Origin: a virus | Virus record (IMG/VR): IMGVR_UViG_3300028392_000045 | Coordinates: 1-64,000 of that record | Length of the DNA: 64,000 nt | Strand: one strand, 5' to 3' | Part shown: positions 14,622 to 38,381 of the stretch, piece after piece | Position numbering within the stretch: the stretch's first letter is position 1 | Layout: every line of letters begins with the position of its first letter | Position numbers and translations under genes: made by a program | Notes under the pieces: generated by a model | Told to the model about the DNA's origin: nothing | Seen by the model: only the letters and a program-made list of their open reading frames with translations | The model's database searches: none

Positions 14622-15130
14622 TTTTCAATTAACTTGTTAAAAATAGTTACATTAGCTGAATCTATTAATTTGTCTAATGCATTAGGATTAGCTTTAAAAT
14701 ATTCACAACAATGAATATAAGCTACTTTAGGTGCTAGTGAAATATGCCAAAAACCAAAGACATCATTTTTTACTGAACCTACATGTCTAGGTTTAAAGTT
14801 AAAACCATTGACTGCATATTTAGTACGATAAACAATATCTTCTTTTATCATTTTAGTACGTACAGGAGATCCAGTTCTTTCCTCTACTTTTTTCCAAGAA
14901 GCTAACCAGTCTACTCTATTTGTTAAATCACTCTTATATTTGAATAGACTTACTTTTCTTTGTTTAGAACTAACAGGATATACATTCCCTTCTGCTAAAT
15001 ATTCAGTAGTAAGTAAATAGTATTTCTTAACTAGTCTAAGATAAGTTAAATAAGTTAATTCAGGATGTTTATGTTTATTGTCTTTCCAATAAGCATCAGC
15101 AGCACTAAAATAAGTTATCTTTTTAGCCAC
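14618..15130 (-). CDS. Basic protein, possibly the IHF-like tail-module gene of crAss-like phages
   Basis: 170 aa, Lys-rich, with VDWLASWK; located between ring genes. Confidence 0.45.
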   Translation of the reverse strand: MAKKITYFSAADAYWKDNKHKHPELTYLTYLRLVKKYYLLTTEYLAEGNVYPVSSKQRKVSLFKYKSDLTNRVDWLASWKKVEERTGSPVRTKMIKEDIVYRTKYAVNGFNFKPRHVGSVKNDVFGFWHISLAPKVAYIHCCEYFKANPNALDKLIDSANVTIFNKLIEK

Positions 15131-15762
15131 TATCGTATTTCTGGATTTTTATCTGATGTCGTATCTTCTTTCCTAGAAAAAGAGAAACGTAACAGATTCA
15201 ATACTTTAAAATAAATCTCATCAGCATCCATTTGTCCAAATCCAGCATCCATATCATATACATCCAAACAAGGATTAGAACCACAGTATTGTATATCTGC
15301 CCACTCTATAATATTTTCCCATAATCCATTTAGACGTACTATAGGTAGAGTAAGATTATTATAGATTTGTAGTCTATCATTAATCAAATTCCATCTAGTA
15401 GCTTTTGATTTAATAGGATCAAACTTAGAATAAAGTAATTCGGTCTCTGTACTATAGCCAAAAGTATTACCTCCTAAATCTGATACTGTCATCAAATCCT
15501 TGTAGCCATTATTAACTACTTTAGGAATAGTATATTTTGATACTAAGATATTACAACCTGTATCACTTACACAAGCACAGTTATGAGCTTTAGCAGGTAT
15601 TAATTCTATACAAAACATAGACCTATTATGAGGTACATCTAACTTCTCTGGATTTTTACAAGTAGCTATCATTGACCATAAAAAACTATCTGTATAGTTA
15701 GAGTCATCTGATACTTCTTTAATTAAAACCCTCAATGTACTTACGGCTTCTCCAATCCTCAT
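15130..15762 (-). CDS. Tail ring protein, Cys-rich
   Basis: 210 aa with CIEL..C.C....C.IL.SK..IPK; assigned by synteny. Confidence 0.65.
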   Translation of the reverse strand: MRIGEAVSTLRVLIKEVSDDSNYTDSFLWSMIATCKNPEKLDVPHNRSMFCIELIPAKAHNCACVSDTGCNILVSKYTIPKVVNNGYKDLMTVSDLGGNTFGYSTETELLYSKFDPIKSKATRWNLINDRLQIYNNLTLPIVRLNGLWENIIEWADIQYCGSNPCLDVYDMDAGFGQMDADEIYFKVLNLLRFSFSRKEDTTSDKNPEIR

Positions 15763-17267: not shown

Positions 17268-19166
17268 TCAAGGATAAGTACATCCAAAATATGCAGTGTC
17301 ACCTATTGTAACTTCTCCACAATTACCAACAACAACAATACGTGCTATATGGTTAAAATTACAAAGTATTGGATAATCTACTGTAGCTACCCCAGCCGAT
17401 AAAGAAGTAAATGAAATAGTTTCGTAGAAGTTTCCTGGTATTGCTGGAGTACCTGGAGAAGCTATTCTATATAGTTTAGCTCTTAGATTACTCAAGTTAA
17501 CATCTGCTGATACTGTAACTCCAATTCTAAAGGTATTTGTAGCTCCACCAGAAGGAAGTAAGAAACTACCTGTAATAGTAGATCCAGAATACTGTCTATG
17601 CTCTACAGTAACGTTTGTAGAAGTAATTCCTAAAGTGTAAGTAAAGGTATAAGTACCTGAGTTTTTACTAGTATAAGATACTGCTGTAGGTGAAGCTAAG
17701 GAAACTGTAGAAGGATTACCTCCTGCTTGTGTCCAAGTACCACCTCCTGAATAACCTATAATCAAAGAAGTTAAATCTATTGTACCTTGATTACATACAT
17801 AACCTGCTGTACCTGTTCCTGCTGATACGTTGGTAACACTGATTGTAACGTTAGCAGATGTTTTATTATTAAGACCTACACCTTGTACTACAATCGTATC
17901 AGATCCAGTAGCAGAAGCTATGTATTGTAGTTGTCCATTTACTATAGTCAAAACACCTTTAGTAGGTGCAGTAACTACATTATAGCTTACAATAGGCACA
18001 CTAAATCTACCTGCTAGGTTATCTGTTACTAATACATTAACTCCACCACTTAGACTGAAGTTAGAAGCTGTAGGAGTAGGATAGTCATAAGGATCAATAT
18101 AAATATCAGCAGCATCAGACCATACTCCAGAAGTATTAGCTACTCTTACTCTAATTCTATCAAAACCAACTGAAGTATTAGTATATCTAATAGTACCAGG
18201 AGCTACAAGAATAGCTGATCCAGTTGCAGTAGTTAAAGTACCACCGGATACACTCTGCCCTGTAGTAGGAATAAATGTAAGAGTAGATAAATCTGCATTT
18301 GGAGGTAGTACTAAAGGATAATCAGTAGTAGTACTTACACCTGCTATTTTCTTAGTAACATCTAAAACTGTAGGAACTCCAGGAACAGAACATAGATTTA
18401 CTTTTACTGCTACTTGAGAATTTTTAGTAAATACACCTAAAGTATTCTTTATTCTTAAAGTATAAGTAAAATTAGAGTTTACAAAAGGCTTACTAAACTG
18501 CATTGAACTAGGTGAAGTCTTAGTTTTTGTAATGCTATTATCATCTAGTATAATAAGACTATCAAGATCTAAAAAACCTACTCCAGTATTGACAAAATTG
18601 ACATTCCAAACTAAAGTATTATTCTGACAAGCAGCTATAACAGAATAGCTATTCTGAATGACCGGATAAGGTATAGGTAAAGTATAGGTAGATGATGCTG
18701 TACAACCATTGCTGTCAGTTACGTAAAGTAGTACTTGAGTATTAGCTACTGTAATATCTGCTTTAGGTATAAGTTGTATAGCTGCTGTATTTACTCCAGT
18801 AGCATCAAACAAACCTGAGTCATACAACCAGTACATAGTATATGGTGCAGTACCTCCTAAAATAGTTCCTGTTACAGCTAGAGTACCAGTAGGATTGGTA
18901 GTTACTGTAAGAGAATTACAAGGATCTGTAATACTCACTACTTGAGATAATGTACAGCCATTATTATCTACTCCTTTAGCAGTTATAGTAGAGCTATAAC
19001 AAGCTGTATCTGGAAAGTCAAATGTAGCTTTAATACTAAAAACTGGATTAGTAGATCTACCTGACGGTGTGCTAATATTAACACAAGGTGAAGAAGATGT
19101 AATAGTCCAGTCTACATATGATGCACCAGGAAAATTAAAGTTTATAGTCTTTTTGATAGTACTCAT
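17268..19166 (-). CDS. Ig-like / SprB-repeat-containing structural (fibre or decoration) protein
   Basis: Thr/Ser-rich. GGTAPYTMYW...VTDSNGCT SprB-like repeat and a TAPTKGVLTI cadherin/Big-like motif; probable start MSTIKK at 19166. Confidence 0.6.
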   Translation of the reverse strand: MSTIKKTINFNFPGASYVDWTITSSSPCVNISTPSGRSTNPVFSIKATFDFPDTACYSSTITAKGVDNNGCTLSQVVSITDPCNSLTVTTNPTGTLAVTGTILGGTAPYTMYWLYDSGLFDATGVNTAAIQLIPKADITVANTQVLLYVTDSNGCTASSTYTLPIPYPVIQNSYSVIAACQNNTLVWNVNFVNTGVGFLDLDSLIILDDNSITKTKTSPSSMQFSKPFVNSNFTYTLRIKNTLGVFTKNSQVAVKVNLCSVPGVPTVLDVTKKIAGVSTTTDYPLVLPPNADLSTLTFIPTTGQSVSGGTLTTATGSAILVAPGTIRYTNTSVGFDRIRVRVANTSGVWSDAADIYIDPYDYPTPTASNFSLSGGVNVLVTDNLAGRFSVPIVSYNVVTAPTKGVLTIVNGQLQYIASATGSDTIVVQGVGLNNKTSANVTISVTNVSAGTGTAGYVCNQGTIDLTSLIIGYSGGGTWTQAGGNPSTVSLASPTAVSYTSKNSGTYTFTYTLGITSTNVTVEHRQYSGSTITGSFLLPSGGATNTFRIGVTVSADVNLSNLRAKLYRIASPGTPAIPGNFYETISFTSLSAGVATVDYPILCNFNHIARIVVVGNCGEVTIGDTAYFGCTYP

Positions 19167-19393
19167 GAAATAGTTATTGTAGGAGTAGTGCAAGTAAATG
19201 ATGTTACAGTAATAGCAGCAGTACAGTTATTAGTTACTGTAAAAGGTGTACAAGGATCTATCAAGTTAGCAGTGGGATAACCACAATCATTTGCATAGTA
19301 AGCTAAGAAGTAAGGATTGATTTTACAATTCTCACAAGGCATACCATATAAATGCTTGTTGACTACATTATGAATTACATCCGCAATTGTCAT
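19163..19393 (-). CDS. Small Cys-rich structural protein
   Basis: 76 aa, overlaps both neighbouring genes. Confidence 0.6.
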   Translation of the reverse strand: MTIADVIHNVVNKHLYGMPCENCKINPYFLAYYANDCGYPTANLIDPCTPFTVTNNCTAAITVTSFTCTTPTITIS

Positions 19394-19775
19394 CTATCTC
19401 TGCTTTAAGTAAATTGAATAAATTCTTAACATCAGTACAGTTTGCACACTGACCTGCTTTAGATAATAGAAAATACCATTCAGCTACATTAGATAAATTA
19501 TTATCTACTACAGCTTTTACTACTTTGCATTTATAGCTTTGATCTACAAAATAGCAAGCAGTTTCTTTTGTTACTACATTACCTGTAGAAGTAATTACAA
19601 GTATAAACTCATAAATACCATCTTTAGGAGATAGCGCAAAAGTATAATTACCTTGAGTTACAGTATAAACTGCATCATTGATATATAACTTGACACCTGT
19701 AATATTAGTCCAAGAAGCTAAACTTGGAGATGCTATTGTCCAGGTGATGTAATCGTTACTCAGACTGACTGTCAC
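19368..19775 (-). CDS. Putative tail hub/ring protein
   Basis: 135 aa, GTG start, DGIYEF motif and C-terminal NCGC. Confidence 0.55.
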   Translation of the reverse strand: MTVSLSNDYITWTIASPSLASWTNITGVKLYINDAVYTVTQGNYTFALSPKDGIYEFILVITSTGNVVTKETACYFVDQSYKCKVVKAVVDNNLSNVAEWYFLLSKAGQCANCTDVKNLFNLLKAEIDDNCGCNS

Positions 19776-19817: not shown

Positions 19818-20999
19818 TTAAATAAAGCATTTTATTCTAACTGGTGCTACCACAGCACTCAATATTGAGTCAAAATCCTTTAAGGCTTCATCCCCAAGTA
19901 CGAGTCTACAAATATTAAGAGCACCATTGCAATCAGCATTTATATACTGATTTTTAGAAGTTCTGAAAAGCCCTCTCTTAACTCTTTTACCAAGATACTT
20001 TTCATGCTTCATAATAGGCTCTAAATCTAAAGCACTACATTTTGATGTATATGCTTCTTGTGTCTCGATAAAAAATTTACCTTCCAACTGTGCTTTATAC
20101 CTTATTTTTTCTATAAGGGTAGCGTGTGGGATTTGAGTAAACTTTCTATTACTATCTTTTCCTATATTAATATTTTGTTTCCAATGTATATTTTTTCCTA
20201 TTATAATTTTTGAAATATTATTAACATTACAAAAGTTTATTATTTCTCTACTAGTTTTATGAATATAATCTTTTATTTTATTATATCTTTTATATGATAA
20301 TTTTTTAATTCTTTTACTTGAATAAATTCCTTTTAATAACTTGGATTGCAATAATGCTTTACGTTTATTATAATATTCATTAATAGATTTTAAAGGCTTT
20401 CCATTAATTATAAATGCTTTGCCGATATTTGAAACACAAGTAACTAAATTATTAAGACCTACATCTATTGATAACCAATTATCGTTTTCTATTAAAAGTT
20501 TTTCCTCTTTTGTATAAATAAATTCTACTACAAAGTGATTTGATTTTGGTATTACTCTACCATAATCAATTTTAGTTAAATTAGTTTTTATAGGTAGAAT
20601 ATTTAACATCTTTGGAAAATGCACATAGCCTTCTTTTATTTTTAATTGACTAGATGTAAATCTTAATTCAGATAACTTTTTTTTATATTTAGGCATTTTA
20701 GGAAAGAATAAAAAATTACTTGAATCTTTATAATAAGATTTTTTAGCTGCTTTCCAAGAACTAATATTTCTAAATAGTATTCTTACTATTTGTTGAGATG
20801 TATTTGAAGGTAAAGCTCTAAATGTAGGTTCATTAAATTTAGCATAAACACCTGTTAATTCATATTCACTAAACTTTTCAATATTGCCAATCATGGATTG
20901 TTTCCAATAGTAAAGAGATTGGTTATAAAGCTCTTTAGCCTTTATACACCATTCTTTCCATTCATTTGTTTTAACTATATGTTGCTCTGTTAATTGCAT
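19818..20999 (-). mobile_element. tnpB: Solo TnpB RNA-guided endonuclease (IS200/IS605/IS607 superfamily), no transposase
   Basis: LYN...SQQ N-terminus, RuvC-I SIDVGLNN, IIIGK..WKQ, EAYTSK and RuvC-III INADCNGALNI; markedly more AT-rich than the flanks. Confidence 0.9.
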
Positions 21000-21672: not shown

Positions 21673-22263
21673 TCAATTAATCTTTTGCATAACATAGTAT
21701 AAACTCATGTCTCTAGGTGCTTTAGATGTACCACCAAACCAAGCAGAAATAGGAATAGTTTTTCTGTAGTTCATAGGATTACCTTGAGTACAAACTATTC
21801 TATCGTTTAGTGTAAAAACATATCTACCTTCTCTTAGTAAAAAACTAAAATTAAATAATTGATTTTGTATTACTTCAACTATAGCATCTTCATGTGGATG
21901 GTTATTAGATCCATTTAAGCTATAGTTTTCATAAATACAAATTTCAAATCTACCTTTAATTTTATGTGGTCTCCATGCTACTATAACGCTATTCTTAGTT
22001 TTAAAAGGGAAATCAAAAGCGTTATAAAAACCACATATCTTGTTGAAGTCATAATTATCCTCACCTAGATTATTATACCAACAAGAACTATCTAGTTTAA
22101 TACTTCCTTGCCAACTAGCAATATCTGAAATACCACCAGTAGGATTAGGTAAAAAATCACTATTGCCTTTCTTTACGTAATACCTTTTAAGCTCAGTAGT
22201 GCCGTTGGTTACTAAGGAACAAGATGTAAAAAGTAGTAGTAAGAAGAATAGTAGGTATTTCAT
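21673..22263 (-). CDS. Lipoprotein with a beta-sandwich (lectin/lyase-like) domain
   Basis: MKYLLFFLLLLFTS-C lipobox; C-terminal WFGGTSKAP. Confidence 0.6.
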   Translation of the reverse strand: MKYLLFFLLLLFTSCSLVTNGTTELKRYYVKKGNSDFLPNPTGGISDIASWQGSIKLDSSCWYNNLGEDNYDFNKICGFYNAFDFPFKTKNSVIVAWRPHKIKGRFEICIYENYSLNGSNNHPHEDAIVEVIQNQLFNFSFLLREGRYVFTLNDRIVCTQGNPMNYRKTIPISAWFGGTSKAPRDMSLYYVMQKIN

Positions 22264-22266
22264 GAT

Positions 22267-24243
22267 TTACTTTTGAACTGAAACTTTAAACGTAGCACTC
22301 GCGGGGTCTACCGAGCTAACAGTGTCATTATTAAATCTAACTGTCACTGTGTCGGCAGCACTCACCCAAGCCATATATCTTACTCCGGTAACAGAGCGCA
22401 AAGCATTCACAACGCCCAGTGTTACAATATCACCATCTGCTGCGCCTGTTACGGTAATTGTAAGGTCGGATTGGCCTAGTGATGCCGTGCTTGGAAAGTC
22501 AAGCGTAGCCGATCCAGATAATCCATAAAAAACTTCTAAACGAGTTGCGGATGGTGTATAAAAAAGCTTACCAGAAGAATTAACTTCAACAGTATTTGCT
22601 TCGGGTGTCGTTAATAGGGCGGCACTTGTTGAGGTAAATTTCAACGGGGCTGTTCCTGCTGTTGCTGTGCCTGCGCCAATATGGACTTTAGCGGTAGCTG
22701 TTACACCATTATTGAACCCCCAGTTGCCAGTAAGCCCATTTATAAACCCACAAAAATTATTATAACGTCCTGCATAAATCCACAAATCACGGCTGGGAGT
22801 TGCTTTTATATCAAAAGCAAACCCATTTGCTGTATATAAATTAAATCCAGAAGAACCAGAACCGTTTGATGTAAGATAAATTTTTGCTTCTGGTTGTTCA
22901 GTTGGTGCAACAATTTCTAAAACTTGTGTTGGTGTGGTATTTAAACCTATAAGACCAGTTGAATCTATATATATATAATGGCTAGCATCGTTTTTAATTT
23001 CGAGACGACCATTTGAGCCACCTGTAGAACCACGAACACCGATATTAAAAGCCGTTTTATTGCTACCTACAATTGTCATTCCTGTCACACCTGCTGTATT
23101 CCTACCGTTAAATTGAATATTAGCTGAATCCAATAACAGTGCTGTTGGTGAAAAAATAAATGAATTTAAACTGCCAGAACTATTTCTAGGAAAAAAAGAA
23201 ACGTTTTGCCCATAAGCATTGAAATCAAATATTGTTTTACTGTTTCCTCCACCCCCTAATGCTGACCAACGTATTTGCCAATCATCTGCATAGGTTTCGT
23301 GCGTTGTTCTGCCCGTAGCAATGTTATATTTCATAAACATAGCCCGAAGTGATTTATTTCCGTTTCTTCCTGCAAAAGTATGATGCCACTCGTTCAAAGT
23401 GTCTAATTCTGGCGTCACATAATCAACTTCAAATTGCTGACCGTTTTGAGGGTATCTGCTATCAATCACATTCCCATTCATAGTATTAAACCCTATGTTA
23501 AAAAGCCTATCGATTAAACCTGTTCCGGCAACGGTTGAGTTGAAAGCTGATATAGTAGCAAAACCACCCGGTCTAAGTCCACGTCTATCGTAAGGAAAAA
23601 GTATTCGATATGCTTTTAATGTGTCTTGCATTCTAAAAGCCCCTTTCACGTATCCAGTATCAACACTCGTATTATAAACTAGCTTTGAACTACCTGCAAA
23701 AGTTGATCCATTATTGATTTGGACTTGATTTATTGATCCGCCCGGTGTTCCGCCACCGCCGCTACTCACCGTCCTCGGCGCATATGCCTCCTTAACGTTA
23801 TCCCAAACAAGCGCCTGCCCAGCACTAGCACCATTTTGAGCGATGTTATTTGGACTAATTTTACTCACTTCTCCTGAATCTACTTTAGCATAAATCAAAG
23901 TAGATCCATTTGATTGTAATACCTGCCCATTTGTAGGGGTAGTGGCAGAAACAGATATACCTTGGATAGAAGTAGCATTCCCTGAAGAACCATTAGCTAA
24001 TTCCCATTGTCCTGTACTTGAATTATATACAAAAGTTTGTCCATTAGCAGTACCAGGACGAAACTTAATAGGATCAAGTGTAAAGTTTTTAATGTATTTA
24101 CCATCTAAGTTAGACGAGCCTTGTCCATAGTCATTTACTCTACCTGTACCTGTATTAGAAGTAACTGGTCTTTTTGGTTCAAACTGACCAAATAGAGATA
24201 CAGTAGTAAAAAGTAAAGTAATAGCTAAAATAATATTTTTCAT
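22267..24243 (-). CDS. Tail-fibre-like protein with a Sec signal peptide
   Basis: MKNIILAITLLFTTVSLFG|Q. Contains GQVL/GQAL..W repeats, a PGGS..QVQINNGSTFAG linker, and a C-terminal ATLDFPS...TVTGAA.GD...AWVSAADTVTVR domain. Confidence 0.7.
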   Translation of the reverse strand: MKNIILAITLLFTTVSLFGQFEPKRPVTSNTGTGRVNDYGQGSSNLDGKYIKNFTLDPIKFRPGTANGQTFVYNSSTGQWELANGSSGNATSIQGISVSATTPTNGQVLQSNGSTLIYAKVDSGEVSKISPNNIAQNGASAGQALVWDNVKEAYAPRTVSSGGGGTPGGSINQVQINNGSTFAGSSKLVYNTSVDTGYVKGAFRMQDTLKAYRILFPYDRRGLRPGGFATISAFNSTVAGTGLIDRLFNIGFNTMNGNVIDSRYPQNGQQFEVDYVTPELDTLNEWHHTFAGRNGNKSLRAMFMKYNIATGRTTHETYADDWQIRWSALGGGGNSKTIFDFNAYGQNVSFFPRNSSGSLNSFIFSPTALLLDSANIQFNGRNTAGVTGMTIVGSNKTAFNIGVRGSTGGSNGRLEIKNDASHYIYIDSTGLIGLNTTPTQVLEIVAPTEQPEAKIYLTSNGSGSSGFNLYTANGFAFDIKATPSRDLWIYAGRYNNFCGFINGLTGNWGFNNGVTATAKVHIGAGTATAGTAPLKFTSTSAALLTTPEANTVEVNSSGKLFYTPSATRLEVFYGLSGSATLDFPSTASLGQSDLTITVTGAADGDIVTLGVVNALRSVTGVRYMAWVSAADTVTVRFNNDTVSSVDPASATFKVSVQK

Positions 24244-24253
24244 TTCTTTTTGT

Positions 24254-25009
24254 TTATTGCACTAAATTAATAACCCAAAAATCATCTGCTAAATCTGTAG
24301 TAGTCAGATAGTCATATGGCATTCTACAATATCCTCTATCTCCCCATTTTGTACCCCAAGAATTTTTTACTATAAAAGATTTACTAAAATCTTCATAGCC
24401 TACAATTTTCATAGCATGTCCTCCTAAAACTCTTTCTGACATACTAGGCATAGGTACAATTCCTGTAGCTGCTACACCAGGAGTTTCAAAACTTTCATAT
24501 ACAGAACAACCAAAAACTACTGGATAACCTTGAGCTAAACAAGATTTAATATCTGTAATATTAGTATTGTCTACTCTATGATAAGTTTGTATTTTATGTT
24601 TAGCAGCTTCAGTATATGCTTTCTTAGTTGGTTTCCTTTTAAACTTAATAATGTCATATGGTACAGTTGTTTCACTACATTCACCATAAGTTACTAAAGC
24701 TTTAATTCCATCTCGTAATTGAGCACCAGAGTCATAGCCTACTGTACCTTCAATAATGCGTTCATTATAATACAAAAATAATCGAGAACCAGATGTGCTG
24801 TATACTCCTTGTTTCTTACGATCAAAATCAAAAGCAGATGTAATAGCATTTGCAGTACAACTACCTAAATTAAGCTGATCAAATACAGGAACATCTTGTG
24901 CTCTTAAATCAACCATAGGAGGTAATGTAATAGCATCTAATTGTCTATTAAATTTGTAGTCTCTATGATCTGGTAGATCAGGAACATAACCATACTTAAA
25001 TTGATACAT
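24254..25009 (-). CDS. Papain-family (C1A, xylellain-like) cysteine protease
   Basis: QLNLGSCTANA, SRLFLYY, GGHAM and KNSWG..WGDRGY motifs. Confidence 0.95.
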   Translation of the reverse strand: MYQFKYGYVPDLPDHRDYKFNRQLDAITLPPMVDLRAQDVPVFDQLNLGSCTANAITSAFDFDRKKQGVYSTSGSRLFLYYNERIIEGTVGYDSGAQLRDGIKALVTYGECSETTVPYDIIKFKRKPTKKAYTEAAKHKIQTYHRVDNTNITDIKSCLAQGYPVVFGCSVYESFETPGVAATGIVPMPSMSERVLGGHAMKIVGYEDFSKSFIVKNSWGTKWGDRGYCRMPYDYLTTTDLADDFWVINLVQ

Positions 25010-25011
25010 TA

Positions 25012-25662
25012 CTATTGAATTTTAACTAAGATAAATTCTACACCTTTATTAGTGTAGTTGATAGCAAACGTATTATCAAATAAATCAAATACTCTTTCTT
25101 CTGGTAATATTCCTTCTAGTTTAAAAGAAGTTTCACACAATACTTTGATTTTACCTTGTACTGGTTTAACATCTTTAGCTAAAGGTTTTCCATTAGCATC
25201 TCCTACTTGTTGTACATTACCTAGAGAATCAATACCAATAACCATACTAGTAGCTCCTCGTAATTGCCATACGCCAGAAAACTTCTTAGCAAAAATCTGA
25301 GTTAGAAAATCTTCATAATCTCTTTTGTACAAAGTCTTAATAAATTTCTTATAGGCTATTGTACCTGATTGATTTTTATTTCTAATCAAAGCACTTCTTA
25401 CTAATTGAGAAGAAGCTAAGTATTCAGAATTTACTAACTCTAAAGATTTTTGTAATAGTGTCAAAGAATCAATCTGAGCGAATGTTTCTGAAGTTAGATC
25501 TGAATCTCCTTTTACATAAGAAGTAAGCTTATAAGTAATCTTATTATTCTTCTTAATTTTAGTAAAAGAAATAGAATCAGCCTTTGCTAATTCAGGTAAT
25601 TGATTTTGTGCAGATACCGTCAATGCACACATAAACATAAAAAAGAAAATACCGTACTTCAT
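25012..25662 (-). CDS. Secreted protein, paralog of 25679-26386
   Basis: Signal peptide ...LTVSA|Q. Confidence 0.7.
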   Translation of the reverse strand: MKYGIFFFMFMCALTVSAQNQLPELAKADSISFTKIKKNNKITYKLTSYVKGDSDLTSETFAQIDSLTLLQKSLELVNSEYLASSQLVRSALIRNKNQSGTIAYKKFIKTLYKRDYEDFLTQIFAKKFSGVWQLRGATSMVIGIDSLGNVQQVGDANGKPLAKDVKPVQGKIKVLCETSFKLEGILPEERVFDLFDNTFAINYTNKGVEFILVKIQ

Positions 25663-25678
25663 TGTGAATTATTTTTAG

Positions 25679-26386
25679 TTAAAGTTTTTGCAAAGTAATA
25701 GAAAAATCGTATGAAATCCAAATACCTAATGGAGTTTGAAAAAACCTAACAACTTTAGGTGTAGCTTTTACTGTAGTAGTTGGATTCTTTACTATAGTAT
25801 AATTAGGAAAATAATTAGTAGTCTCAATACAGTTATTAGATAATACTCTAAAATTACCATTAAAGTTAGGAGTACCTGTTTCTGAGTTCATGTTTTTTGC
25901 ATTACCACTGATATTAGAAGTAACTACAATTACATGATCTACCCATCTAGCATTCAAAGAAACAGCTTGCCATCTACCAGTAAAAGCAGATAGATTTGCA
26001 TTAAAAGTAGAGTCGGGATAATTAGTCTTAGTCATTCTACTAAACATCTTACTAAAAACTACATTACCTTTTTCTGAAGTACCATACAAAGCTTCATACT
26101 TGGCACGTACTGCACTTGCTGTAGCTTCATAACCACTAGCTAGTTTTGATTGTAAAGCAGCTACTACAGCTACAGAATCATACAAAGGAGATACAGCATT
26201 AATGGTATCACCTGTTGCTTTATAGGCTATATAGACAAATTGTACTTTACGTTTTGCTATTCCATTTTCAATTACATTACGTTTTACTAAACGTACAGAG
26301 TCAACTGTATTAAGATCAGGTAGATCAACAGATTGAGCAAAAATGGAAACTGAAAAAAGTAGAAATAAAAAAGTTAAATATTTCAT
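25679..26386 (-). CDS. Secreted protein, paralog of 25012-25662
   Basis: Signal peptide ...SIFA|Q. Confidence 0.7.
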   Translation of the reverse strand: MKYLTFLFLLFSVSIFAQSVDLPDLNTVDSVRLVKRNVIENGIAKRKVQFVYIAYKATGDTINAVSPLYDSVAVVAALQSKLASGYEATASAVRAKYEALYGTSEKGNVVFSKMFSRMTKTNYPDSTFNANLSAFTGRWQAVSLNARWVDHVIVVTSNISGNAKNMNSETGTPNFNGNFRVLSNNCIETTNYFPNYTIVKNPTTTVKATPKVVRFFQTPLGIWISYDFSITLQKL

Positions 26387-26397
26387 GGTATTGATTT

Positions 26398-29300
26398 TTA
26401 TTGTTGATTAGTTACTACCCATCGGTAAATTGATCCCGGTAAAAGCATACAAGTCAAAGTCACATTACCCCAAGCTAATGATGTTGTTGCATCAGTTATA
26501 TCGTAAGTTGAAAAGGTTGTCGGTGCACTTGCGAGTCCAGTAGAATACCAGATACCCGAAGTACAAGAAACGGTTACTTTAAAAGTTAAGGCAGCATCAG
26601 CGGCATAGATTACAACTGATTGCCCAACAAATGTTGCCGATGGAGTAGGTAAAGTTACAGTAGTATTAGCACTCGCACCTGATGTCTGATCGGCATAAAC
26701 ATTTACAGTCTGAAATAGTGTTAAATCTGAACTTGCATCATAATTGGCATTCTGTGTCTGTACTGCTTTTGAAAATCCTCTACCTGAAATTATATTTCCA
26801 TTTGCATCACCTACAACAACAGACCCTTGAGTAAGTCCACCATTTGGCATAGTAGGAATTTCTCTCCATGCTGCAAATGTATTGTCACGGATATTTAGCC
26901 TAGTTGTTGTACTATTTGCAATTACCAATAAGTTTGCTGGTGATGAAATAGCGTCGCGTTGGGTTGTGGTCATTACAGGAGGAAGAAATCCTCTAGTCGT
27001 AGAGTTTAGTGAAAGAACTGCGCTTGCGACTACTGATGCATCAACCGTATTATTATCAGAAATAATTGAACCTTTATTTACACCAAATATTATTTGTCGT
27101 CGGTTATTACCCGGAAGAATAGATACATCTCTAGTATTCCCTGAACAAATCTGTAGATCTCCACTAGTATTTACGATTATATCCGTATTTGAACCATTTG
27201 ATATATTTAATTTACTTGATGCTATCGTTGAGTTTATTGTTAAACCGCCAGATGGCGACATTACTAATGTGGATGATGATTGCAAATTCCCATTCGCATC
27301 ACCAAAAGCGATCTGTGTATTTGGAATTGATGTCTGAGAAGATCCTATCAAATATTTCCAAGAATCAGCATTGTTATAACCCAAGCGTCCAATTGTCGAA
27401 TTATACACAAACAACCCAGCAGGCGTGGTAATCGTAGCAACCGTTATCACCAACCCCGAACCGCTACCACCACCAATAGTAGCATTCGAAGCACTCAAAA
27501 CGTCCCCTACTTGATAACCACTTCCCGCTGTTGTGATAGTCACCACTGTAACAGCACCACCAGAGACAGTGATTGAAGCAACTGCGCCTGTACCTGTACC
27601 ACCTGTGAGGGCAATACTGGTGTAGCTTCCGTTGGTGTAACCTGTACCTCCGTTGGTTAGGGTTATGGTTGCTATGCCTGAATAGTTTGCGGCGATGTTT
27701 GCGGTTGTTTGGATGGGGAAGGGCATTGAGCCTTTTGTGGTGGAAGTAACAGAAAATTGAGCTAAATTATAACTTGTCGTAACACCTGTAGGATTTACAG
27801 CAAGTGTATTTGTTGAAAATATATAACCGTTTGTACCACCTGAAGCTGTATTTTTATCAATAAGTAAATTATTATTTAAGCCGCCTAAAATTTGAATAGT
27901 TGTTCCACTGTTTGCTCTCGTAATATTTAAATTACTAGATGTAGAATTTATAGCATTAACGTTCAATCCATTTCCTACTGTAACAGAACTTAAAAAATTC
28001 GCAGCAGCATTAACTTCTAAGCCAAACGAATTTGTAATAGACGTGTTTGTCCCAGCTGATGGTGCAGATCCAATCCTAACAGTAGAAAAACTCGTGTATG
28101 TTGTTGCGTTAGTTGAATTAACAACCCCGCCATCAAAACTTGACATTGAACCAGAAGCAATCGTACTTGCTCCCGATGTGTTCGTCACTGTCCCCGTCGC
28201 CACTCTAAATACATAACCATTTCCAGATAAATCACCTGTACTTGAATAAGAAGGTGTAATATGAACTTGAGAAGTAGGACTTGCTTGATTAAACCCAGTG
28301 AATCCAGTAAAGTTATTAACGCCACTCCAAGTTTGAGTACTTTGAAGTAAAGGAATAGTGCCACTTGCATTTTGCAGGGTGTACAATCTGTCTGCTGTGT
28401 TTGATTCTGAAAACCCATAAACAAATCCAGAAGCATCTTTTACACTTAAAGCATTACTTGCATTCGCATACAAAGCTAAACCACTCGAAACCGTTGTAGG
28501 TGCAGCCGATTGGTTTAGCATACCAAAAAAACCAGCTCCACCAGTGCCGGTTAAAGTACCACCAACTGCTGAAAATCCGCTTGATGCCGCAGGACGTGGC
28601 GCATATTTTGAACCCGTCCAAGTTAGTACATCACCAGTATTAGCTAAAGTCTGCGCTATGTTATTGGGGCTAAGTGCAGCGGCTTTTGTTGAGTCAACAG
28701 CGGCACTTGCTATCTTTATCTTTGTTACAGCGCTGTTGGCTATAGTTGTTGCGATAGCACCTGTTCCAGAAGCCGTTACATCACCCGTTAAGCTGGTAAT
28801 TAAATTAGAGGTTAAAGCGATAGTTCCACTAGCATCTGGTAAAGTATAAGCCCTATCCGCTGTATTAGAATGCGGAAAGCTATAAGTCAATCCCGCACCA
28901 TTTTTTACTGAAAAAACGTTGGAAGAGTTTGCAAATAAAGCCATCGAACTTGGAAAAGTAGTTGGATTTGCTGATTGACTTATCATTCCAAAGAATCCTG
29001 TGCCTCCTGTTCCAATTATAAATCCACCTGTTTTAGGATAATATGTTGCCCCAAGATTGAGATTTGTAATTGACGTCCTAACATAAGCTTGAGATGCAAC
29101 AAGGGCAGAGTCAACTCTAACTGTTTTAGTTCCCTTGATTGTTCCCCATCCGAATGTGCTGGGATAGATTGCCAACATTGTGGTCGTATCTGTTTTAAGT
29201 ATGTACGATGTTAGGTTTGATGTCAATGCAAACGTTCCAGTTGCATCTGGTAAAGTATATGTGCGATCTGCCGTGTTCGCTTCTGACAAGATATACGTAC

Positions 29301-29904
29301 GACCAGATGCGTTTTTGACACCTAGGGCACTTGCGGCATTTGCGAAAATACGCAAGCCACTAGATGGTGCACTCGGATTGGCTGATTGAGAAGGAAGACC
29401 GTAAAAACCAGCACCACCTGTGCCAGTCAAAGTTCCACCAAGCAAAGGAAAGTATGTAGTACCTAAGTTTAAATTTGTAATTTGCGTCCTAACATAAGCC
29501 CGTGAGGCCGCCAAAACTGAATCGATGCGAATTGTTTTGCTGCTTTTTAGCAATCCCCAACCAGGTGTAGATGCGTAATTAGCTAAAAAAGCTGTAGTAT
29601 CTGTCTTTAGTAAATAAGGAGTTAAATCAGTACTAAATACTACCCAAGTATTAGGTAAAGCAGATAATCTATATAATAGGTTATTAGAATTGACAAATAC
29701 AAACATACCTACTTTTCTTCTTAGAGTAGGTATATTATTTCTTTCTGTAGTATCTGCAACAGACCTAAAACCTCCTCTAGCTAAAGAGTCCATGTGAGTA
29801 GGATAAGTACCTCCTCCAATAGTTTGAATATATCCTGCTACGTTAACTTGAGCAGAAAGTGATAAAGTAAAAGCTAAAAATATAATAGATAGTAATAGTC
29901 TCAT
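26398..29904 (-). CDS. Long tail-fibre-like protein with a Sec signal peptide and internal repeats
   Basis: ...SLSA|Q. Three GG..TGTGG.GF.G...NTADR.YTL.DA.GT repeats, plus LTGGTGTGA..ITVSGGAVT and STTRGFLPPVMTTTQRDAI fibre motifs. Confidence 0.75.
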   Translation of the reverse strand: MRLLLSIIFLAFTLSLSAQVNVAGYIQTIGGGTYPTHMDSLARGGFRSVADTTERNNIPTLRRKVGMFVFVNSNNLLYRLSALPNTWVVFSTDLTPYLLKTDTTAFLANYASTPGWGLLKSSKTIRIDSVLAASRAYVRTQITNLNLGTTYFPLLGGTLTGTGGAGFYGLPSQSANPSAPSSGLRIFANAASALGVKNASGRTYILSEANTADRTYTLPDATGTFALTSNLTSYILKTDTTTMLAIYPSTFGWGTIKGTKTVRVDSALVASQAYVRTSITNLNLGATYYPKTGGFIIGTGGTGFFGMISQSANPTTFPSSMALFANSSNVFSVKNGAGLTYSFPHSNTADRAYTLPDASGTIALTSNLITSLTGDVTASGTGAIATTIANSAVTKIKIASAAVDSTKAAALSPNNIAQTLANTGDVLTWTGSKYAPRPAASSGFSAVGGTLTGTGGAGFFGMLNQSAAPTTVSSGLALYANASNALSVKDASGFVYGFSESNTADRLYTLQNASGTIPLLQSTQTWSGVNNFTGFTGFNQASPTSQVHITPSYSSTGDLSGNGYVFRVATGTVTNTSGASTIASGSMSSFDGGVVNSTNATTYTSFSTVRIGSAPSAGTNTSITNSFGLEVNAAANFLSSVTVGNGLNVNAINSTSSNLNITRANSGTTIQILGGLNNNLLIDKNTASGGTNGYIFSTNTLAVNPTGVTTSYNLAQFSVTSTTKGSMPFPIQTTANIAANYSGIATITLTNGGTGYTNGSYTSIALTGGTGTGAVASITVSGGAVTVVTITTAGSGYQVGDVLSASNATIGGGSGSGLVITVATITTPAGLFVYNSTIGRLGYNNADSWKYLIGSSQTSIPNTQIAFGDANGNLQSSSTLVMSPSGGLTINSTIASSKLNISNGSNTDIIVNTSGDLQICSGNTRDVSILPGNNRRQIIFGVNKGSIISDNNTVDASVVASAVLSLNSTTRGFLPPVMTTTQRDAISSPANLLVIANSTTTRLNIRDNTFAAWREIPTMPNGGLTQGSVVVGDANGNIISGRGFSKAVQTQNANYDASSDLTLFQTVNVYADQTSGASANTTVTLPTPSATFVGQSVVIYAADAALTFKVTVSCTSGIWYSTGLASAPTTFSTYDITDATTSLAWGNVTLTCMLLPGSIYRWVVTNQQ

Positions 29905-29910
29905 TTTCTT

Positions 29911-31119
29911 TTAATTTACACTAGTAAAAATAAATGCAGTATTAGAAAAAGTATTATTACTAGTATATACATAGTAATTTTGAACATATCCAGAAGCATT
30001 AGTTACTGATACTGTAGATCTAGTAAATGCTCCTATAGATTCTAAACCTGATACTATAATTGAAGTAAGAACTCCAAAAGAAGTAGGATAAGCATAATAC
30101 ACATTAGAAGGTGTTCCTACTCCAATAGATACAGAAAACCCTCCTTTAGCTGCTACTGTAGAAAATTCAGATGAACCTCCTGTAGTAGATATAATCTGAG
30201 CAGATGTAGGAGTACCTATATTATATCCCCAGTATTTTTTTGCTCTCCATAATAAACTAGTAGAAGCTCCAGATCCTTTTCCATCTGCTGTAGTACATAA
30301 AGAACTAAAAGTAGCATCTACGTTTCTTGTAGTAGTTGTGTTTTGAGTACCTGTTGCTGTAGCTCCTGCTGCTGGGTTAGTAGATGTATTTACTCCATTG
30401 ACTGTAAAACTAGCAACTGCTGTAGCATTAGTAGGTCTAAAAGCAGACCAGTTTAATACTAACGAAACTGCACCAGAACCAGACATTAATTCAGTTGTAA
30501 TAGTCTGTGCTGTAGTACCACCATAAGTAGTTGTTAATCCTAAAGTAATAGGAGAAGAAGGAAAAAATACTTGATCTAAGAAATCTTGTACTGTTGTAGT
30601 AGTACCCATATTTTGACCATTGAGCAATGATCCAGTTATAGTTCTATTACCATTATAATTTGCTGAAGTTGAAGATGCAGTAGATAAAGAATCTAATCGT
30701 ATAATGGCATCATTTAAAATAGCTAAATTAGTAGCATTAGGAGCACCATCAGCAGCTATACCTAATCGTCTTACTGAAGTATACCTATATATTACAGAAT
30801 TAACAGGAGGTATAATAGTAAGTGTTGATGTAGAATCTATAACACGACAACTAATTAAATTAGCACTTACAGATAATATAGAATCAATATGGAGTTTGTA
30901 ATACTTAGTGCCAGATAGTAAAAAAATCTTATAACCTACAGCTACCTGAGAAGCACTGTATTGTGCGTTGGTATTATTGAAAAAACCAGTAAAGAGAAAT
31001 TTATTAGTTACTCCTACTCTACTAGAAGAAGCTATATTAAAAGAACCATGAAATTTTCTTGATACTGTTTGACCTTGTAAGAAAAAAGGAAACAGTAATA
31101 TAATTAACAATAGTCTCAT
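29911..31119 (-). CDS. Secreted structural/fibre-like protein
   Basis: ...FLQG|Q signal peptide; C-terminal YYAYPTSFG.L...VTNASG...YYVY domain. Confidence 0.65.
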   Translation of the reverse strand: MRLLLIILLFPFFLQGQTVSRKFHGSFNIASSSRVGVTNKFLFTGFFNNTNAQYSASQVAVGYKIFLLSGTKYYKLHIDSILSVSANLISCRVIDSTSTLTIIPPVNSVIYRYTSVRRLGIAADGAPNATNLAILNDAIIRLDSLSTASSTSANYNGNRTITGSLLNGQNMGTTTTVQDFLDQVFFPSSPITLGLTTTYGGTTAQTITTELMSGSGAVSLVLNWSAFRPTNATAVASFTVNGVNTSTNPAAGATATGTQNTTTTRNVDATFSSLCTTADGKGSGASTSLLWRAKKYWGYNIGTPTSAQIISTTGGSSEFSTVAAKGGFSVSIGVGTPSNVYYAYPTSFGVLTSIIVSGLESIGAFTRSTVSVTNASGYVQNYYVYTSNNTFSNTAFIFTSVN

Positions 31120-35536: not shown

Positions 35537-36709
35537 TTATTCTAAAAATACTTCTTCAGGAATTGTAGAATCTTCAGTATCAAAATTCATATCGTCAGAT
35601 TCTATAAGTTCCTTAAAGTTATCTCTCTTTCTTTCTGAGAAGTAATTACAGTCAGAATAAAGAAACTCAAGAATTTTTTTAACACTACCATTTGAGTATC
35701 TTAAATCTCCTATTTCATTATCTCTGTCTTTATGACGGATGTAAATAGAAGTTTCAGTTAAACCTAAATGGTGTATCAAAACTTGTTGTACTTCAAGTAA
35801 AAAAGGTTTGTTACCAGTAAAACTTATATTGGGTCTACCTCCTGTATACCAGACAGAACCATCACCATCATAATATCCTCTGATAAAGTGTCTAATCAAA
35901 TTAGGATCAATATCAGGAATATGTTCTAGGATATGTGTTTTGTTTTGTACACAACCCCACTTAGCTAATGCATCACACAAAATAGGACTGCATATAGTCA
36001 TAGTATAGAAATCCTGATGATTCTCATTCTCTCTAGTTCTAATGCCTATAGTATGTGTAGCACCAATAGCTTCTTTAAATTTATAAAGAAGTGGGCTATC
36101 TCCTTCAGCAAATCCTAACTTTATGTAAGTTTTTTGCTGGCAGTTATAACCATCTGCATAGAAGAGTCCAAGAAAATAAGCCTTGTCTTGGGTATCAATA
36201 TTATCAAAATAATGATAATCGCAAGTGTAAGTATTATAATCTGCCTGTTCTCTTTTCATATCTTCAGGTAGATATTTCAATACAGTAGGTTTACCAATAT
36301 CAAGTTGTTTAGCTACTTTAGCTGCTGATAACCCTTGCTCATAGAGATCGTAGATTTGAAATCTAATTTGAGTAGTAATTTCAGTTTTTACTCGAACCCA
36401 TACCTTATGTTTACGCTGCATTTTCTCTACATAAGAATTACTTACTTTAAGTCTTTTAGCAATGTCAACTATACTAAGTCCTTCCTTTGTAAGTTCCACT
36501 ACTTGTAATGCAACTTCTTCAGGAATTACTCTAGGTTTAGGTCTAGTGAACTCAACTCCTTTTTCTTTTAACCAAGTTTTAATAACTGGTCTTGAGATAC
36601 CTACAATCTCACTAATCGTTCTTAATGAGGTTTTTTCTTGATGAAGACAAAGAATCTGATCAATCAGACTCAATTTGACTTTTTCGGAAATAGCATTGTA
36701 ATGTGCCAT
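35537..36709 (-). CDS. Free-standing LAGLIDADG homing endonuclease with N-terminal HTH repeats
   Basis: AYFLGLFYADG and HFIRGYYDGDGS motifs; three HTH-like repeats in the first ~150 aa. Confidence 0.9.
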   Translation of the reverse strand: MAHYNAISEKVKLSLIDQILCLHQEKTSLRTISEIVGISRPVIKTWLKEKGVEFTRPKPRVIPEEVALQVVELTKEGLSIVDIAKRLKVSNSYVEKMQRKHKVWVRVKTEITTQIRFQIYDLYEQGLSAAKVAKQLDIGKPTVLKYLPEDMKREQADYNTYTCDYHYFDNIDTQDKAYFLGLFYADGYNCQQKTYIKLGFAEGDSPLLYKFKEAIGATHTIGIRTRENENHQDFYTMTICSPILCDALAKWGCVQNKTHILEHIPDIDPNLIRHFIRGYYDGDGSVWYTGGRPNISFTGNKPFLLEVQQVLIHHLGLTETSIYIRHKDRDNEIGDLRYSNGSVKKILEFLYSDCNYFSERKRDNFKELIESDDMNFDTEDSTIPEEVFLE

Positions 36710-36782: not shown

Positions 36783-38381
36783 TTATTCCCAGACTATTTT
36801 TCCACATGAAGAAATGTCCCATGCCCCCAAACTACCCGACAATTCACGCTTAATTGACAAAGTTTTGCCATCACGGTACACGTTAGAACCATCACGTACA
36901 ACACCATTTTTGAAGTCAATTGCGTTAGCTACAGAGTAATAGTAATCTGCCATGTCTTCTACAGCCATGAAGATGTTTTCACCTGATGCATTTTCGTCAG
37001 CGTTTTCAGACTTACCAAATTCCATAATGTCAATGTTGAATGACTCTTTTGGAAGGTAAGAACCTGGAGCTTTTTCTTTGTACAATTGATCATCATCCTT
37101 AGAAGGATCATACATGATTTGTACATCAATGCCGTTAGGGAACTTAATACGAGTGAATTGGAAACCAAATTCTTTTTCGTATTGGTGTACTCCAGTTGGT
37201 TCTGGATTAGAACGAAGTGCAAAACCTGGCTCCAATGTTTGGAATACTGATGCGTTCTGTGCAATCAAGTTGGACAAATAAGTAATAGCACCTGTACCAC
37301 CACAAAGAATAGGCTTACGATTCATGAAACCACGACGACGGAATACAATCTGATGCAAGAAATCATAAAGGTCAGCAAGAGTAAAGTTACCATTGTGTAC
37401 CATCAATTGACCATCACGAACTAGCTGTCTCCAACCTGGAGCAGTTTTGATTGCACGCTTAGAATCCATGTCGTTGTTAATCTGCAAACGACCAAATTCA
37501 CAAGCCATTTCACGGTCTCTCTCAGTACGCTCCAACAAACGTTGTTCAGCTTTAGTGATAAAGAAGCCTTTCTCAATCTTTTCGTTAGTACCAGATTTAG
37601 TCAAAGAAGTCTGATATACATAACCACGACCAAATGCATCATGATACTGCTTACCTCCATTACCATCTTGGTAAGTAGATTTGTTAGCACCACCTGTACG
37701 AGCAGCAGCCAATTCTTGCTTAACGAATTTGTCTGTAAAAGTTACTTCATTACCATACTGACCTACAATAGAGCGCAATTTAGACATTGAGCTGTACTGA
37801 TCAGTACCGTATTTGTCGTTTTCTTCGTTAGCTACACGAGTAGACACCCGAACAAAAATACGACCTACTTCCAACAAGCTAGAAGGAATCCAAGTATTAG
37901 GATTGCTGTCTTGTAGTTCACAAGTATACTTCCAAGAGTGACCAGCACCAAGAGGTTGAGCTACATCAAGGATGTTAATCAGTGGAGCATCATCAGATTC
38001 AGTCTTGATCACACATGGTGTTTTCAACCAGTTGCGGTCAAGTGCAATTTCAAATGTTGCATTGTTTTTACCAACTTGAGATCCACCAGTTACCAACAAT
38101 TCGGTAGAACGGAAATCAATATCAGCATCACCTACTACTGACCATTGGTAATCATTAGTACCAGCAGGTAGTTTGTGAAAGTTACCTTGAGCCATAGTCA
38201 AATAAGTCCAACGCTTATTTGTAAGACCAAGAGAACTTGTAGAGGAGAAAAGACGTGAAGTCATTACTCCAAAATCAAAAGGTTTGTCGTCACGAAACAA
38301 AGCAGCATGTGAGGCACTGTCAAAAAAGTTACCACCGAAGCCTTTGTATTCACTGACGCGAAGTTGCGCTCTGCGTTCCAT
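36783..38381 (-). CDS. Major capsid protein
   Basis: 532 aa. YQWSV.G, F.IALD..W and APGWRQL motifs; strongly biased codon usage; downstream of portal and scaffold-like genes. Confidence 0.85.
   Translation of the reverse strand: MERRAQLRVSEYKGFGGNFFDSASHAALFRDDKPFDFGVMTSRLFSSTSSLGLTNKRWTYLTMAQGNFHKLPAGTNDYQWSVVGDADIDFRSTELLVTGGSQVGKNNATFEIALDRNWLKTPCVIKTESDDAPLINILDVAQPLGAGHSWKYTCELQDSNPNTWIPSSLLEVGRIFVRVSTRVANEENDKYGTDQYSSMSKLRSIVGQYGNEVTFTDKFVKQELAAARTGGANKSTYQDGNGGKQYHDAFGRGYVYQTSLTKSGTNEKIEKGFFITKAEQRLLERTERDREMACEFGRLQINNDMDSKRAIKTAPGWRQLVRDGQLMVHNGNFTLADLYDFLHQIVFRRRGFMNRKPILCGGTGAITYLSNLIAQNASVFQTLEPGFALRSNPEPTGVHQYEKEFGFQFTRIKFPNGIDVQIMYDPSKDDDQLYKEKAPGSYLPKESFNIDIMEFGKSENADENASGENIFMAVEDMADYYYSVANAIDFKNGVVRDGSNVYRDGKTLSIKRELSGSLGAWDISSCGKIVWE

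Follow-up and report, generated by a model that had tools for sequence, protein, structure and literature searches.

Why should the tail-fibre genes of a phage carry secretion signals? The question is raised by seven consecutive minus-strand genes at positions 21673-31119 of a viral DNA (IMG/VR record IMGVR_UViG_3300028392_000045), six of which begin with an export leader. The window analysed here, 64,000 nucleotides (nt) long, is the first 64 kb of this 97,264-bp record, the completeness of which is put at 91% by CheckV. In the textbook view, tailed phages are assembled wholly in the cytoplasm. A sequence-only reading of the window had suggested instead that receptor-binding fibres are exported, folded in the periplasm and joined to virions at lysis. 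The present analysis supports the view that the leaders are genuine, that they are conserved and follow the Q-rule of the Bacteroidota host, and that the block is the phage's tail-fibre (host-recognition) module, as indicated by its position and its fibre-like mosaic architecture.

All seven genes exist as they had been described, and the export signals fall where they had been placed (Table 1). Five products, of 402, 1168, 235, 216 and 658 amino acids (aa), start with a leader predicted to be cut by signal peptidase I (SPI) in front of Gln after transport through the Sec translocon, and the sixth, a 196-aa lipoprotein, has a lipobox (FTS-C). Only the 251-aa papain-type peptidase is leaderless. 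The calls were made by rule-based inspection combined with conservation. The five SPI leaders are built alike, with Lys or Arg at position 2, 11-15 uncharged hydrophobic residues, Ala or Gly at -1 and Gln at +1 (5/5). Together, Lys/Arg at position 2, a small residue at -1 and Gln at +1 are the signature of Bacteroidota SPI substrates (see PMC5837995). In the AlphaFold2 (AF2) model of the 658-aa protein, residues 2-17 form a helix. Translation from starts downstream of the leaders, named earlier as an outcome that would undo the proposal, is not realistic given the gene packing: only 2-16 nt separate neighbouring genes of the block, and no start codon lies between the stop of one gene and the ATG of the next, so that there is no room for a start that skips the leader.

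Such leaders are concentrated in the block. A simple hydrophobicity screen of the 117 open reading frames (ORFs) of the whole genome flagged 12 N-termini; outside the block, about three of those flagged are leader- or anchor-like by eye, and a single one has Gln at +1. This is a 160-aa protein, the sole protein of the genome outside the block with a leader and Gln. Given nine leader-like N-termini in the genome, the hypergeometric probability of finding six in seven consecutive genes is about 2e-7, or about 2e-5 when corrected for all windows.

As to the machinery, neither an M28-type glutaminyl cyclase nor an S26 signal peptidase was matched in the phage genome; phage-encoded versions of the two enzymes are therefore discarded, and host enzymes would be needed for cleavage and cyclisation. 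A need for periplasmic folding driven by disulfides was also rejected, since each protein has only 1-3 cysteines. Secretion by the type IX secretion system (T9SS) was considered as well. No block member matched a type IX sorting domain of type A or B (Pfam E<=0.01, NCBIfam E<=0.1), and T9SS domains were absent from the 50 best structural matches of the C-terminal tip of the 658-aa protein. With no sorting domain found in these searches, the proteins are unlikely to be type IX cargo. Subdomains of this tip are also present in phyla that are not known to have T9SS. Periplasmic export is the most economical reading of the leaders, and Sec export and cleavage of the five SPI proteins, as predicted, are highly probable.

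The leaders are shared by relatives of the phage. In two uncultured relatives known from IMG/VR contigs (L002 and L005), whose major capsid proteins are 68-70% identical to that of the window, gene order is kept and the block opens with three and two consecutive genes, respectively, for proteins with a leader and Gln before the contigs end. In a more distant 104-kb contig (L122; core proteins 35-52% identical), gene order is again kept and the block is readable through to the lysis genes: four consecutive proteins with leader and Gln (1041, 587, 1599 and 179 aa) are followed by a 137-aa protein, a homologue of the lipoprotein with its jelly-roll fold and a gene resembling crAss001 gp28. At this slot, the block is the only set of large fibre-like genes conserved in the relatives. 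The leader sequences themselves drift between relatives, and the cut site, the Gln and the residues right after it are kept. On this sequence evidence the leaders are under selection, and the survey of homologues suggested earlier finds them conserved. A recent host-derived insertion was rejected, as the block is in place in relatives with core proteins 35-70% identical. Neither crAss001 nor the marine crAss-like Cellulophaga phage phi14:2 has leaders on its fibres, the N-termini of which are ordinary and hydrophilic. The leaders are therefore a trait of this lineage and not of crassviruses generally.

A second line of evidence comes from glycosylation motifs. Bacteroidota O-glycosylate only non-cytoplasmic proteins, at D-(S/T)-(A/I/L/V/M/T) (PMC12871550). 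This motif occurs 23 times in the five SPI proteins versus 8.9 expected from shuffled sequences (2.6-fold, P 6e-5), and 39 times in 23 leaderless proteins of the same genome versus 40.4 expected. The 235-aa protein alone has four motifs versus 0.6 expected. Proteins elsewhere that share the tip of the 658-aa protein and have a leader show a 2.1-fold excess outside the shared domain, and the 160-aa protein has two motifs versus 0.5. Enrichment confined to leader-bearing proteins would be a sign of periplasmic exposure that is independent of the leaders. The motif count also gives plausible values in other phages: two membrane-anchored, periplasm-facing lysis proteins, crAss001 gp27 (L001) and phi14:2 gp87 (L006), have four motifs each versus 0.3-0.6 expected. 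From this excess, periplasm-facing lysis proteins of Bacteroidota phages may perhaps be glycosylated.

That the block encodes fibres is indicated first by its place in the genome. Capsid and ring proteins matched in Pfam, together with a conserved gene order, make the phage a member of Crassvirales, but a distant one; its capsid protein shares only about 22% identity with the capsid proteins of crassviruses already known. An amidase is also among the Pfam matches of the window. The minus-strand order runs from terminase, portal, a scaffold-like gene and capsid through four conserved virion genes and two small paralogues to the seven-gene block; then come two small membrane proteins, a TnpB transposase, three Cys-rich genes, a metallophosphoesterase, an exonuclease-like gene, ring protein 2, ring protein 1, a 1250-aa gene in the position of the muzzle and giant genes. 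The order in phi14:2 matches: capsid, fibres, lysis genes, metallophosphoesterase, ring protein 2, ring protein 1 and muzzle. The block thus lies, as had been noticed, between head and lysis-type genes, with the capsid on one side and a gene for a membrane protein like crAss001 gp28 on the other. In crAss001, the fibre genes gp22-gp26 are likewise followed by the membrane/lysis genes gp27 and gp28, and in phi14:2 gp91-gp98, annotated as structural by tandem mass spectrometry (MS/MS), fill the corresponding slot. Both sets are large mosaic fibres at the same place in the operon; they differ from the block in having neither leaders nor sequence similarity to it. Cryo-electron microscopy of crAss001 showed its fibres docked by the N-terminus in a hub that sits on the tail barrel (PMC10172136).

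The architecture of the three large proteins points in the same direction. A conserved anchor with swapped tips is a hallmark of phage receptor-binding proteins. In the family of the 402-aa protein, alignment with the L005 and L002 homologues shows the leader, the Gln and mature residues 1-145 to be conserved and the C-termini to be unrelated, and the homologues in L005 and L122 end in the tip domain of the 658-aa protein; the 402-aa protein is likely the proximal (anchoring) fibre. The 1168-aa protein has three repeats with a motif of the type '...TADRTYTLPDA(T/S)GT(F/I)ALTSNL' and matches in PHROGs phrog_438 'baseplate wedge subunit' (residues 727-815, E 3e-8) and phrog_23630 (residues 39-90). 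Its closest homologue (P0008) and the 1599-aa homologue in L122 have a leader and Gln, and distant homologues (P0009, P0011, P0013 and P0014) have ordinary leaderless fibre-like N-termini. Short segments recur in the 1168-aa protein, the 658-aa protein and the fibres of L002 and L122. Four full-length homologues of the 658-aa protein (P0002, P0003, P0005 and P0006) all have a leader and Gln. The AF2 model of this protein has a mean predicted local distance difference test (pLDDT) score of 52 and is confident only at the tip (residues 550-658, pLDDT 80-93). Poor modelling elsewhere is no surprise in a trimeric fibre whose alignment is shallow, and because confidence is confined to the tip no enzymatic central domain is claimed.

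The tip, the C-terminal part of about 150 aa, is a widespread module. Its last 85 residues are modelled as a lectin-like beta-sandwich. Its best structural matches are lectins and the sandwich domains at the C-terminal end of phage tailspikes, depolymerases and pyocin fibres; the top match, Kp32gp38 (Z 7.8, root-mean-square deviation 2.9, 83 aligned residues), has a modest Z score within the common range. The model would fit a lectin-like tip. In an exhaustive HMMER search, 4199 cluster representatives (E<=1e-3) had the tip, in every case as the C-terminal part of a protein of 170-1860 aa. Among the best 149 of these 4199, 128 start with Met, and 84 of the 128 have a leader by rule and 77 Gln at the candidate +1 position. 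The tip is found on at least 279 IMG/VR viral contigs. In the 80 tip loci that were kept, leader and Gln were called by rule in 50 of 75 complete tip ORFs versus 62 of 1042 neighbouring ORFs, and about seven further tip ORFs, by our reading, have leader and Gln behind a mis-called upstream start. A 44-kb podovirus from a spring (L011, MW202554.1) gives a separate observation: its 'tail collar domain', concanavalin-like and 164-aa tip-domain proteins begin with leader-like segments that are not followed by Gln. Leader-bearing tail parts may therefore not be limited to phages of Bacteroidota.

Cultured phages provide the closest experimental parallel. In Cellulophaga podovirus phi18:3 (NC_021794), gp085 (FGYS/Q, where the slash marks the predicted cut), gp086 (GVSA/Q) and gp087 (GLNA/Q, 'tail protein') lie just before the lysis genes. 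In the siphovirus phi10:1 (NC_021802), gp091-gp094, which follow the tail genes and include a 'tail fiber protein', have a leader and Gln; two of the leader-bearing proteins of this phage are annotated as pectate lyases. The GenBank annotation of phi18:3 gp085-087 and phi10:1 gp091-094 cites 'experimental MS/MS proteomics' as support for a structural role, and the remaining virion proteins of the two phages listed by mass spectrometry (MS) have no leader, among the N-termini read. As in the block, consecutive fibre, lyase or tail genes before lysis genes encode proteins with a Bacteroidota leader cut before Gln; the two phages differ in belonging to other phage families and in showing no detectable sequence similarity to the block. 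No discussion of these leaders was found in the searchable papers. By analogy, such leader-bearing proteins would reach virions, and the phi18:3 and phi10:1 annotations are the only experimental support for this. With position and analogy taken together, the five SPI proteins are quite likely to be virion fibres.

The route that would follow can be set out step by step. Late in infection, the three fibre proteins and their two small partners would be made as preproteins and passed to the host Sec translocon. Host SPI would cleave them before Gln, and host glutaminyl cyclase would probably turn the new N-terminus into pyroglutamate. Folding and trimerisation would take place in the periplasm, where a host O-glycan would probably be added, and the product of the last gene would be a lipoprotein with a sugar-binding jelly-roll fold. 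Heads filled with DNA, and tail barrels, would meanwhile be assembled in the cytoplasm in the normal way. Docking of the fibres on these particles, through their conserved mature N-terminal domains, would have to wait until the inner membrane is breached by the lysis system, or would take place in the lysate. For this joint reading of export, host processing and docking after the breach, the probability is put at roughly 0.55. Its parts stand on different ground: export is argued for by the leaders, their conservation and the motif enrichment, virion membership is argued by position and analogy, and joining at lysis is what we infer. That the same division holds for some Bacteroidota tailed phages more widely, with head and tail barrel cytoplasmic, the whole host-recognition apparatus periplasmic (Sec, SPI, pyroglutamate and O-glycan), the two meeting after lysis and progeny fibres bearing host-type glycans, is put forward tentatively.

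Several members of the block and its surroundings may have a place in this route. The 235-aa and 216-aa proteins are paralogues (BLASTP E 3e-8); the nearest Atlas clusters of the latter are viral hypothetical proteins of about 200 aa with scores below 0.9, which is a lead only, and neither paralogue has informative relatives. From their position, one might guess that they are exported fibre partners, chaperones or assembly factors. The two leaderless paralogues of 184 and 180 aa share an N-terminal GG(S/T)N-x-N(Y/F)DY motif and are kept in L002, L005 and L122, always immediately 5' of the first leader-bearing fibre gene; their position makes them candidates for virion-side docking (hub) or head-fibre proteins. 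The peptidase (PF00112, E 9e-17; phrog_16701 'peptidase', E 1e-19) has no pro-region and retains catalytic Gln45, Cys51, His198 and Asn216 in papain-like motifs. The earlier idea that it serves as a maturation factor is unsupported, because it is leaderless, and thus would be in another compartment than the fibres, and has no counterpart in the L122 block. It looks like an accessory gene. Beyond the peptidase, Pfam, NCBIfam and PHROGs matched almost nothing in the block, and no Peptidase_S74 was found in Pfam.

A number of points weigh against the route. The leader calls do not come from a trained predictor. The motif excess comes partly from repeated fibre segments, so that the counts are not fully independent, and phi18:3 gp085-087 are depleted in the motif rather than enriched. 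These three proteins have no detectable homology to the block, and the support that they lend is not that of sequence relatives; MS of purified phage can also pick up co-purifying envelope proteins or vesicles. Leaderless fibre-like candidates elsewhere in the tail region (135, 76 and 641 aa) could be the true virion fibres, and the tip domain is not confined to phages, being present too in exported proteins encoded on bacterial chromosomes outside prophages. No docking partner has been identified. In full-text literature searches, no description of tailed-phage fibres exported by Sec came to light, nor any precedent in print for fibres that dock on such phages after export.

Alternatively, the proteins would be exported without joining the virion, as fibres acting on the envelope at the cell surface or in the periplasm, or as agents that mask or destroy receptors and so block superinfection and the sticking of progeny to debris. 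The tip is found in bacterial genomes, mostly of Bacteroidota, in proteins all named 'hypothetical protein'. It ends an exported protein of about 393 aa in Patiriisocius (L023 9260-10447), Luteirhabdus (L038 9239-10414) and Altibacter (L042 9233-10414), where the genes of these Flavobacteriaceae lie in the same housekeeping neighbourhood (lpdA, Lrp-type regulator) with no phage genes around, and Terrimonas has a cluster of tip-bearing paralogues. Cells thus also make exported fibre-like tip proteins, which keeps a cell-surface reading alive, and the leaderless candidates of the tail region would leave the virion with fibres of its own. A cellular parallel is known in Bdellovibrio bacteriovorus, the mosaic adhesive trimer (MAT) fibres of which resemble phage fibres and are displayed on the surface; their signal peptide leads straight into a beta-rich N-terminal domain of about 130 aa that is conserved, whereas the adhesive tips are swapped (Caulton et al. 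2024, PMC10769870). Compared by architecture only, the 402-aa family has the same plan; the MAT fibres differ in being cellular and on the predator's surface rather than in a virion operon, and their S74 chaperone-protease domain was not found in the block. Phage genes with Q-rule leaders have been reported before from another Bacteroidota host: genes of Porphyromonas gingivalis phages with predicted SPI cleavage exposing Gln were read as an adaptation to host secretion (Matrishin et al. 2023, PMC10367356). These are prophage genes of unknown function, read as envelope modifiers, and no fibres, tail parts or whole module were named. Against an envelope role, the block occupies the place of the fibres in the virion operon, where it is closely packed (2-16 nt between genes) and flanked by head and lysis genes; expression late in infection, together with the virion genes, would fit a structural role better than superinfection exclusion; neither a T9SS sorting domain nor another known outer-membrane route was detected; and the analogous proteins of phi18:3 and phi10:1 are annotated as virion proteins. 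An envelope role is judged rather unlikely.

The lipoprotein suggests another function, in which exported lectins and a jelly-roll lipoprotein work with the adjacent lysis genes as an accessory set for lysis or egress that clears capsule, exopolysaccharide or receptors from inside. Its AF2 model (pLDDT 68) has a concanavalin-A-like or PL7-like beta-jelly-roll fold, and its structural matches are PL7 alginate lyases and a PL28 ulvan lyase (Z 12-12.7, about 150-170 residues aligned, 5-12% identity to PL7 structures); many lectins and GH16 enzymes score nearly as high. The family is large and mostly viral, with large viral Atlas clusters at 0.98, and its members stand directly before membrane/lysis genes in three phages, those of the window, L122 and L143. 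Two further facts would suit a role in egress, the two proteins of phi10:1 annotated as pectate lyases and the spanin-like build of the 113-aa protein encoded downstream. The lipoprotein is, however, not PL7 by sequence membership or catalytic residues, and resembles these enzymes in its modelled jelly-roll fold: it has no Pfam or NCBIfam match, and no PL7 signature motif is recognisable in it. No Pfam or NCBIfam enzyme was matched by the large proteins either. The lipobox is present in two homologues (P0016, LSG-C; L143, LSS-C), whereas those of L122 and P0017 have no leader, and conserved N-terminal anchors with swapped tips typify particle-attached fibres, not free enzymes. The lipoprotein is probably a glycan-binding or glycan-cleaving envelope protein, and a role of the whole block in egress is improbable.

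That the leaders remain uncleaved or do not serve export, tethering the fibres to the cytoplasmic side of the inner membrane or plugging into the tail hub while assembly stays all cytoplasmic, is still less probable: crAss001 tail- and head-fibre N-termini are indeed buried in hub and capsid pockets (PMC10172136), so that N-termini can dock, and leader cleavage in the block is predicted from sequence, but the fibre N-termini of crAss001 and phi14:2 are not hydrophobic, a docking helix needs no Lys/Arg at position 2, small -1 residue or invariant Gln at +1, all kept while the leaders drift, one block member carries a lipobox instead, and a glycosylation motif used only outside the cytoplasm is enriched.

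The block is flanked by further genes of interest (Table 1). The 113-aa protein that marks its boundary matches crAss001 gp28, a holin or lysis regulator, with a phmmer E of 1e-4 in a small database. Its build is that of an inner-membrane spanin rather than a holin, and it may form a spanin-like pair with the lipoprotein encoded just upstream, the L122 homologue of which is without a leader. The TnpB gene is a recent insertion in the virion operon, because the homologues of its flanking genes adjoin each other in L122. Family searches with the three Cys-rich proteins were empty; the 135-aa gene is conserved in L122, and the three proteins could be further fibres or decoration proteins. Other searches found little. 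The block had no megablast match among 50,697 phage records, and tblastn of its two large proteins against the same records gave short domain matches only. Pattern scans of IMG/VR and the JGI metagenomes with the 658-aa, 1168-aa and 457-aa proteins, the metallophosphoesterase and P0008 were empty, PDB sequence searches with the 1168-aa and 641-aa proteins found nothing, and a promoter and terminator scan was uninformative.

Table 1. Features of the window discussed in the text, with the seven-gene block first; a slash marks the predicted cut.
Feature	Position	Strand	Remarks
Fibre protein 1, 402 aa	29911-31119	-	Sec/SPI leader ...FFLQG/QTVS
Long fibre protein, 1168 aa	26398-29904	-	Sec/SPI leader ...LSLSA/QVNV
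Small exported protein, 235 aa	25679-26386	-	Sec/SPI leader ...VSIFA/QSVD
Small exported protein, 216 aa	25012-25662	-	Sec/SPI leader ...LTVSA/QNQL
C1 papain-type peptidase, 251 aa	24254-25009	-	No leader; Pfam Peptidase_C1
Fibre / receptor-binding protein, 658 aa	22267-24243	-	Sec/SPI leader ...VSLFG/QFEP
Lipoprotein, 196 aa	21673-22263	-	MKYLLFFLLLLFTS-C lipobox (LFTS-C)
gp28-like protein, 113 aa	21246-21587	-	Boundary marker outside the block; N-terminal membrane helix and long coiled coil; conserved in L122
Two leaderless paralogues, 184 and 180 aa	31130-32235	-	Directly upstream of the first fibre gene
IS605-type TnpB/OrfB gene	19818-20999	-	Pfam OrfB_IS605 and Cas12f1-like_TNB; between lysis-type membrane genes and the 135-aa gene
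Three leaderless Cys-rich genes: 135 aa (6 Cys), 76 aa (6 Cys), 641 aa (11 Cys)	17268-19775	-	Between TnpB and the metallophosphoesterase
Ring protein 2	15130-15762	-	Pfam CrAss_Ring_2, E 2e-8
Ring protein 1	13557-14621	-	Pfam CrAss_Ring_1, E 2e-13
Free-standing homing endonuclease, helix-turn-helix and LAGLIDADG	35537-36709	-	After the capsid gene; present in L003, absent in L002, L005 and L122
Major capsid protein	36783-38381	-	Pfam Crass_capsid, E 5e-30
Terminase-sized gene, 1109 aa	41879-45208	-	Intein with LAGLIDADG endonuclease; 766-aa version in relatives
Other protein with leader and Gln, 160 aa	62086-62568	+	...TTKA/QFGD; near the polymerase gene, far from the virion operon

What this case adds is a whole seven-gene block, six members of which bear leaders, in a deeply divergent crAss-like lineage, kept across three relatives. 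It also connects one tip domain with exported proteins encoded on chromosomes, and a jelly-roll lipoprotein with the junction of fibre and lysis genes. The cultured Cellulophaga phages that share the feature make the idea testable. If the fibres are exported and later joined to the particle, a periplasmic arm would be added to the assembly pathway of tailed phages and its last step would be tied to the timing of lysis. The host signal peptidase, glutaminyl cyclase and O-glycosylation system would then modify the very parts that decide host range, with consequences for receptor recognition, for extracellular stability and for the way in which such fibres have to be expressed in engineering or structural work. 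Annotation would be affected too, since leader-bearing proteins are often dismissed as non-structural. If the proteins instead act on the envelope, the block would be a large phage-encoded envelope-remodelling system, akin to cellular exported fibres and undescribed for crAss-like phages.

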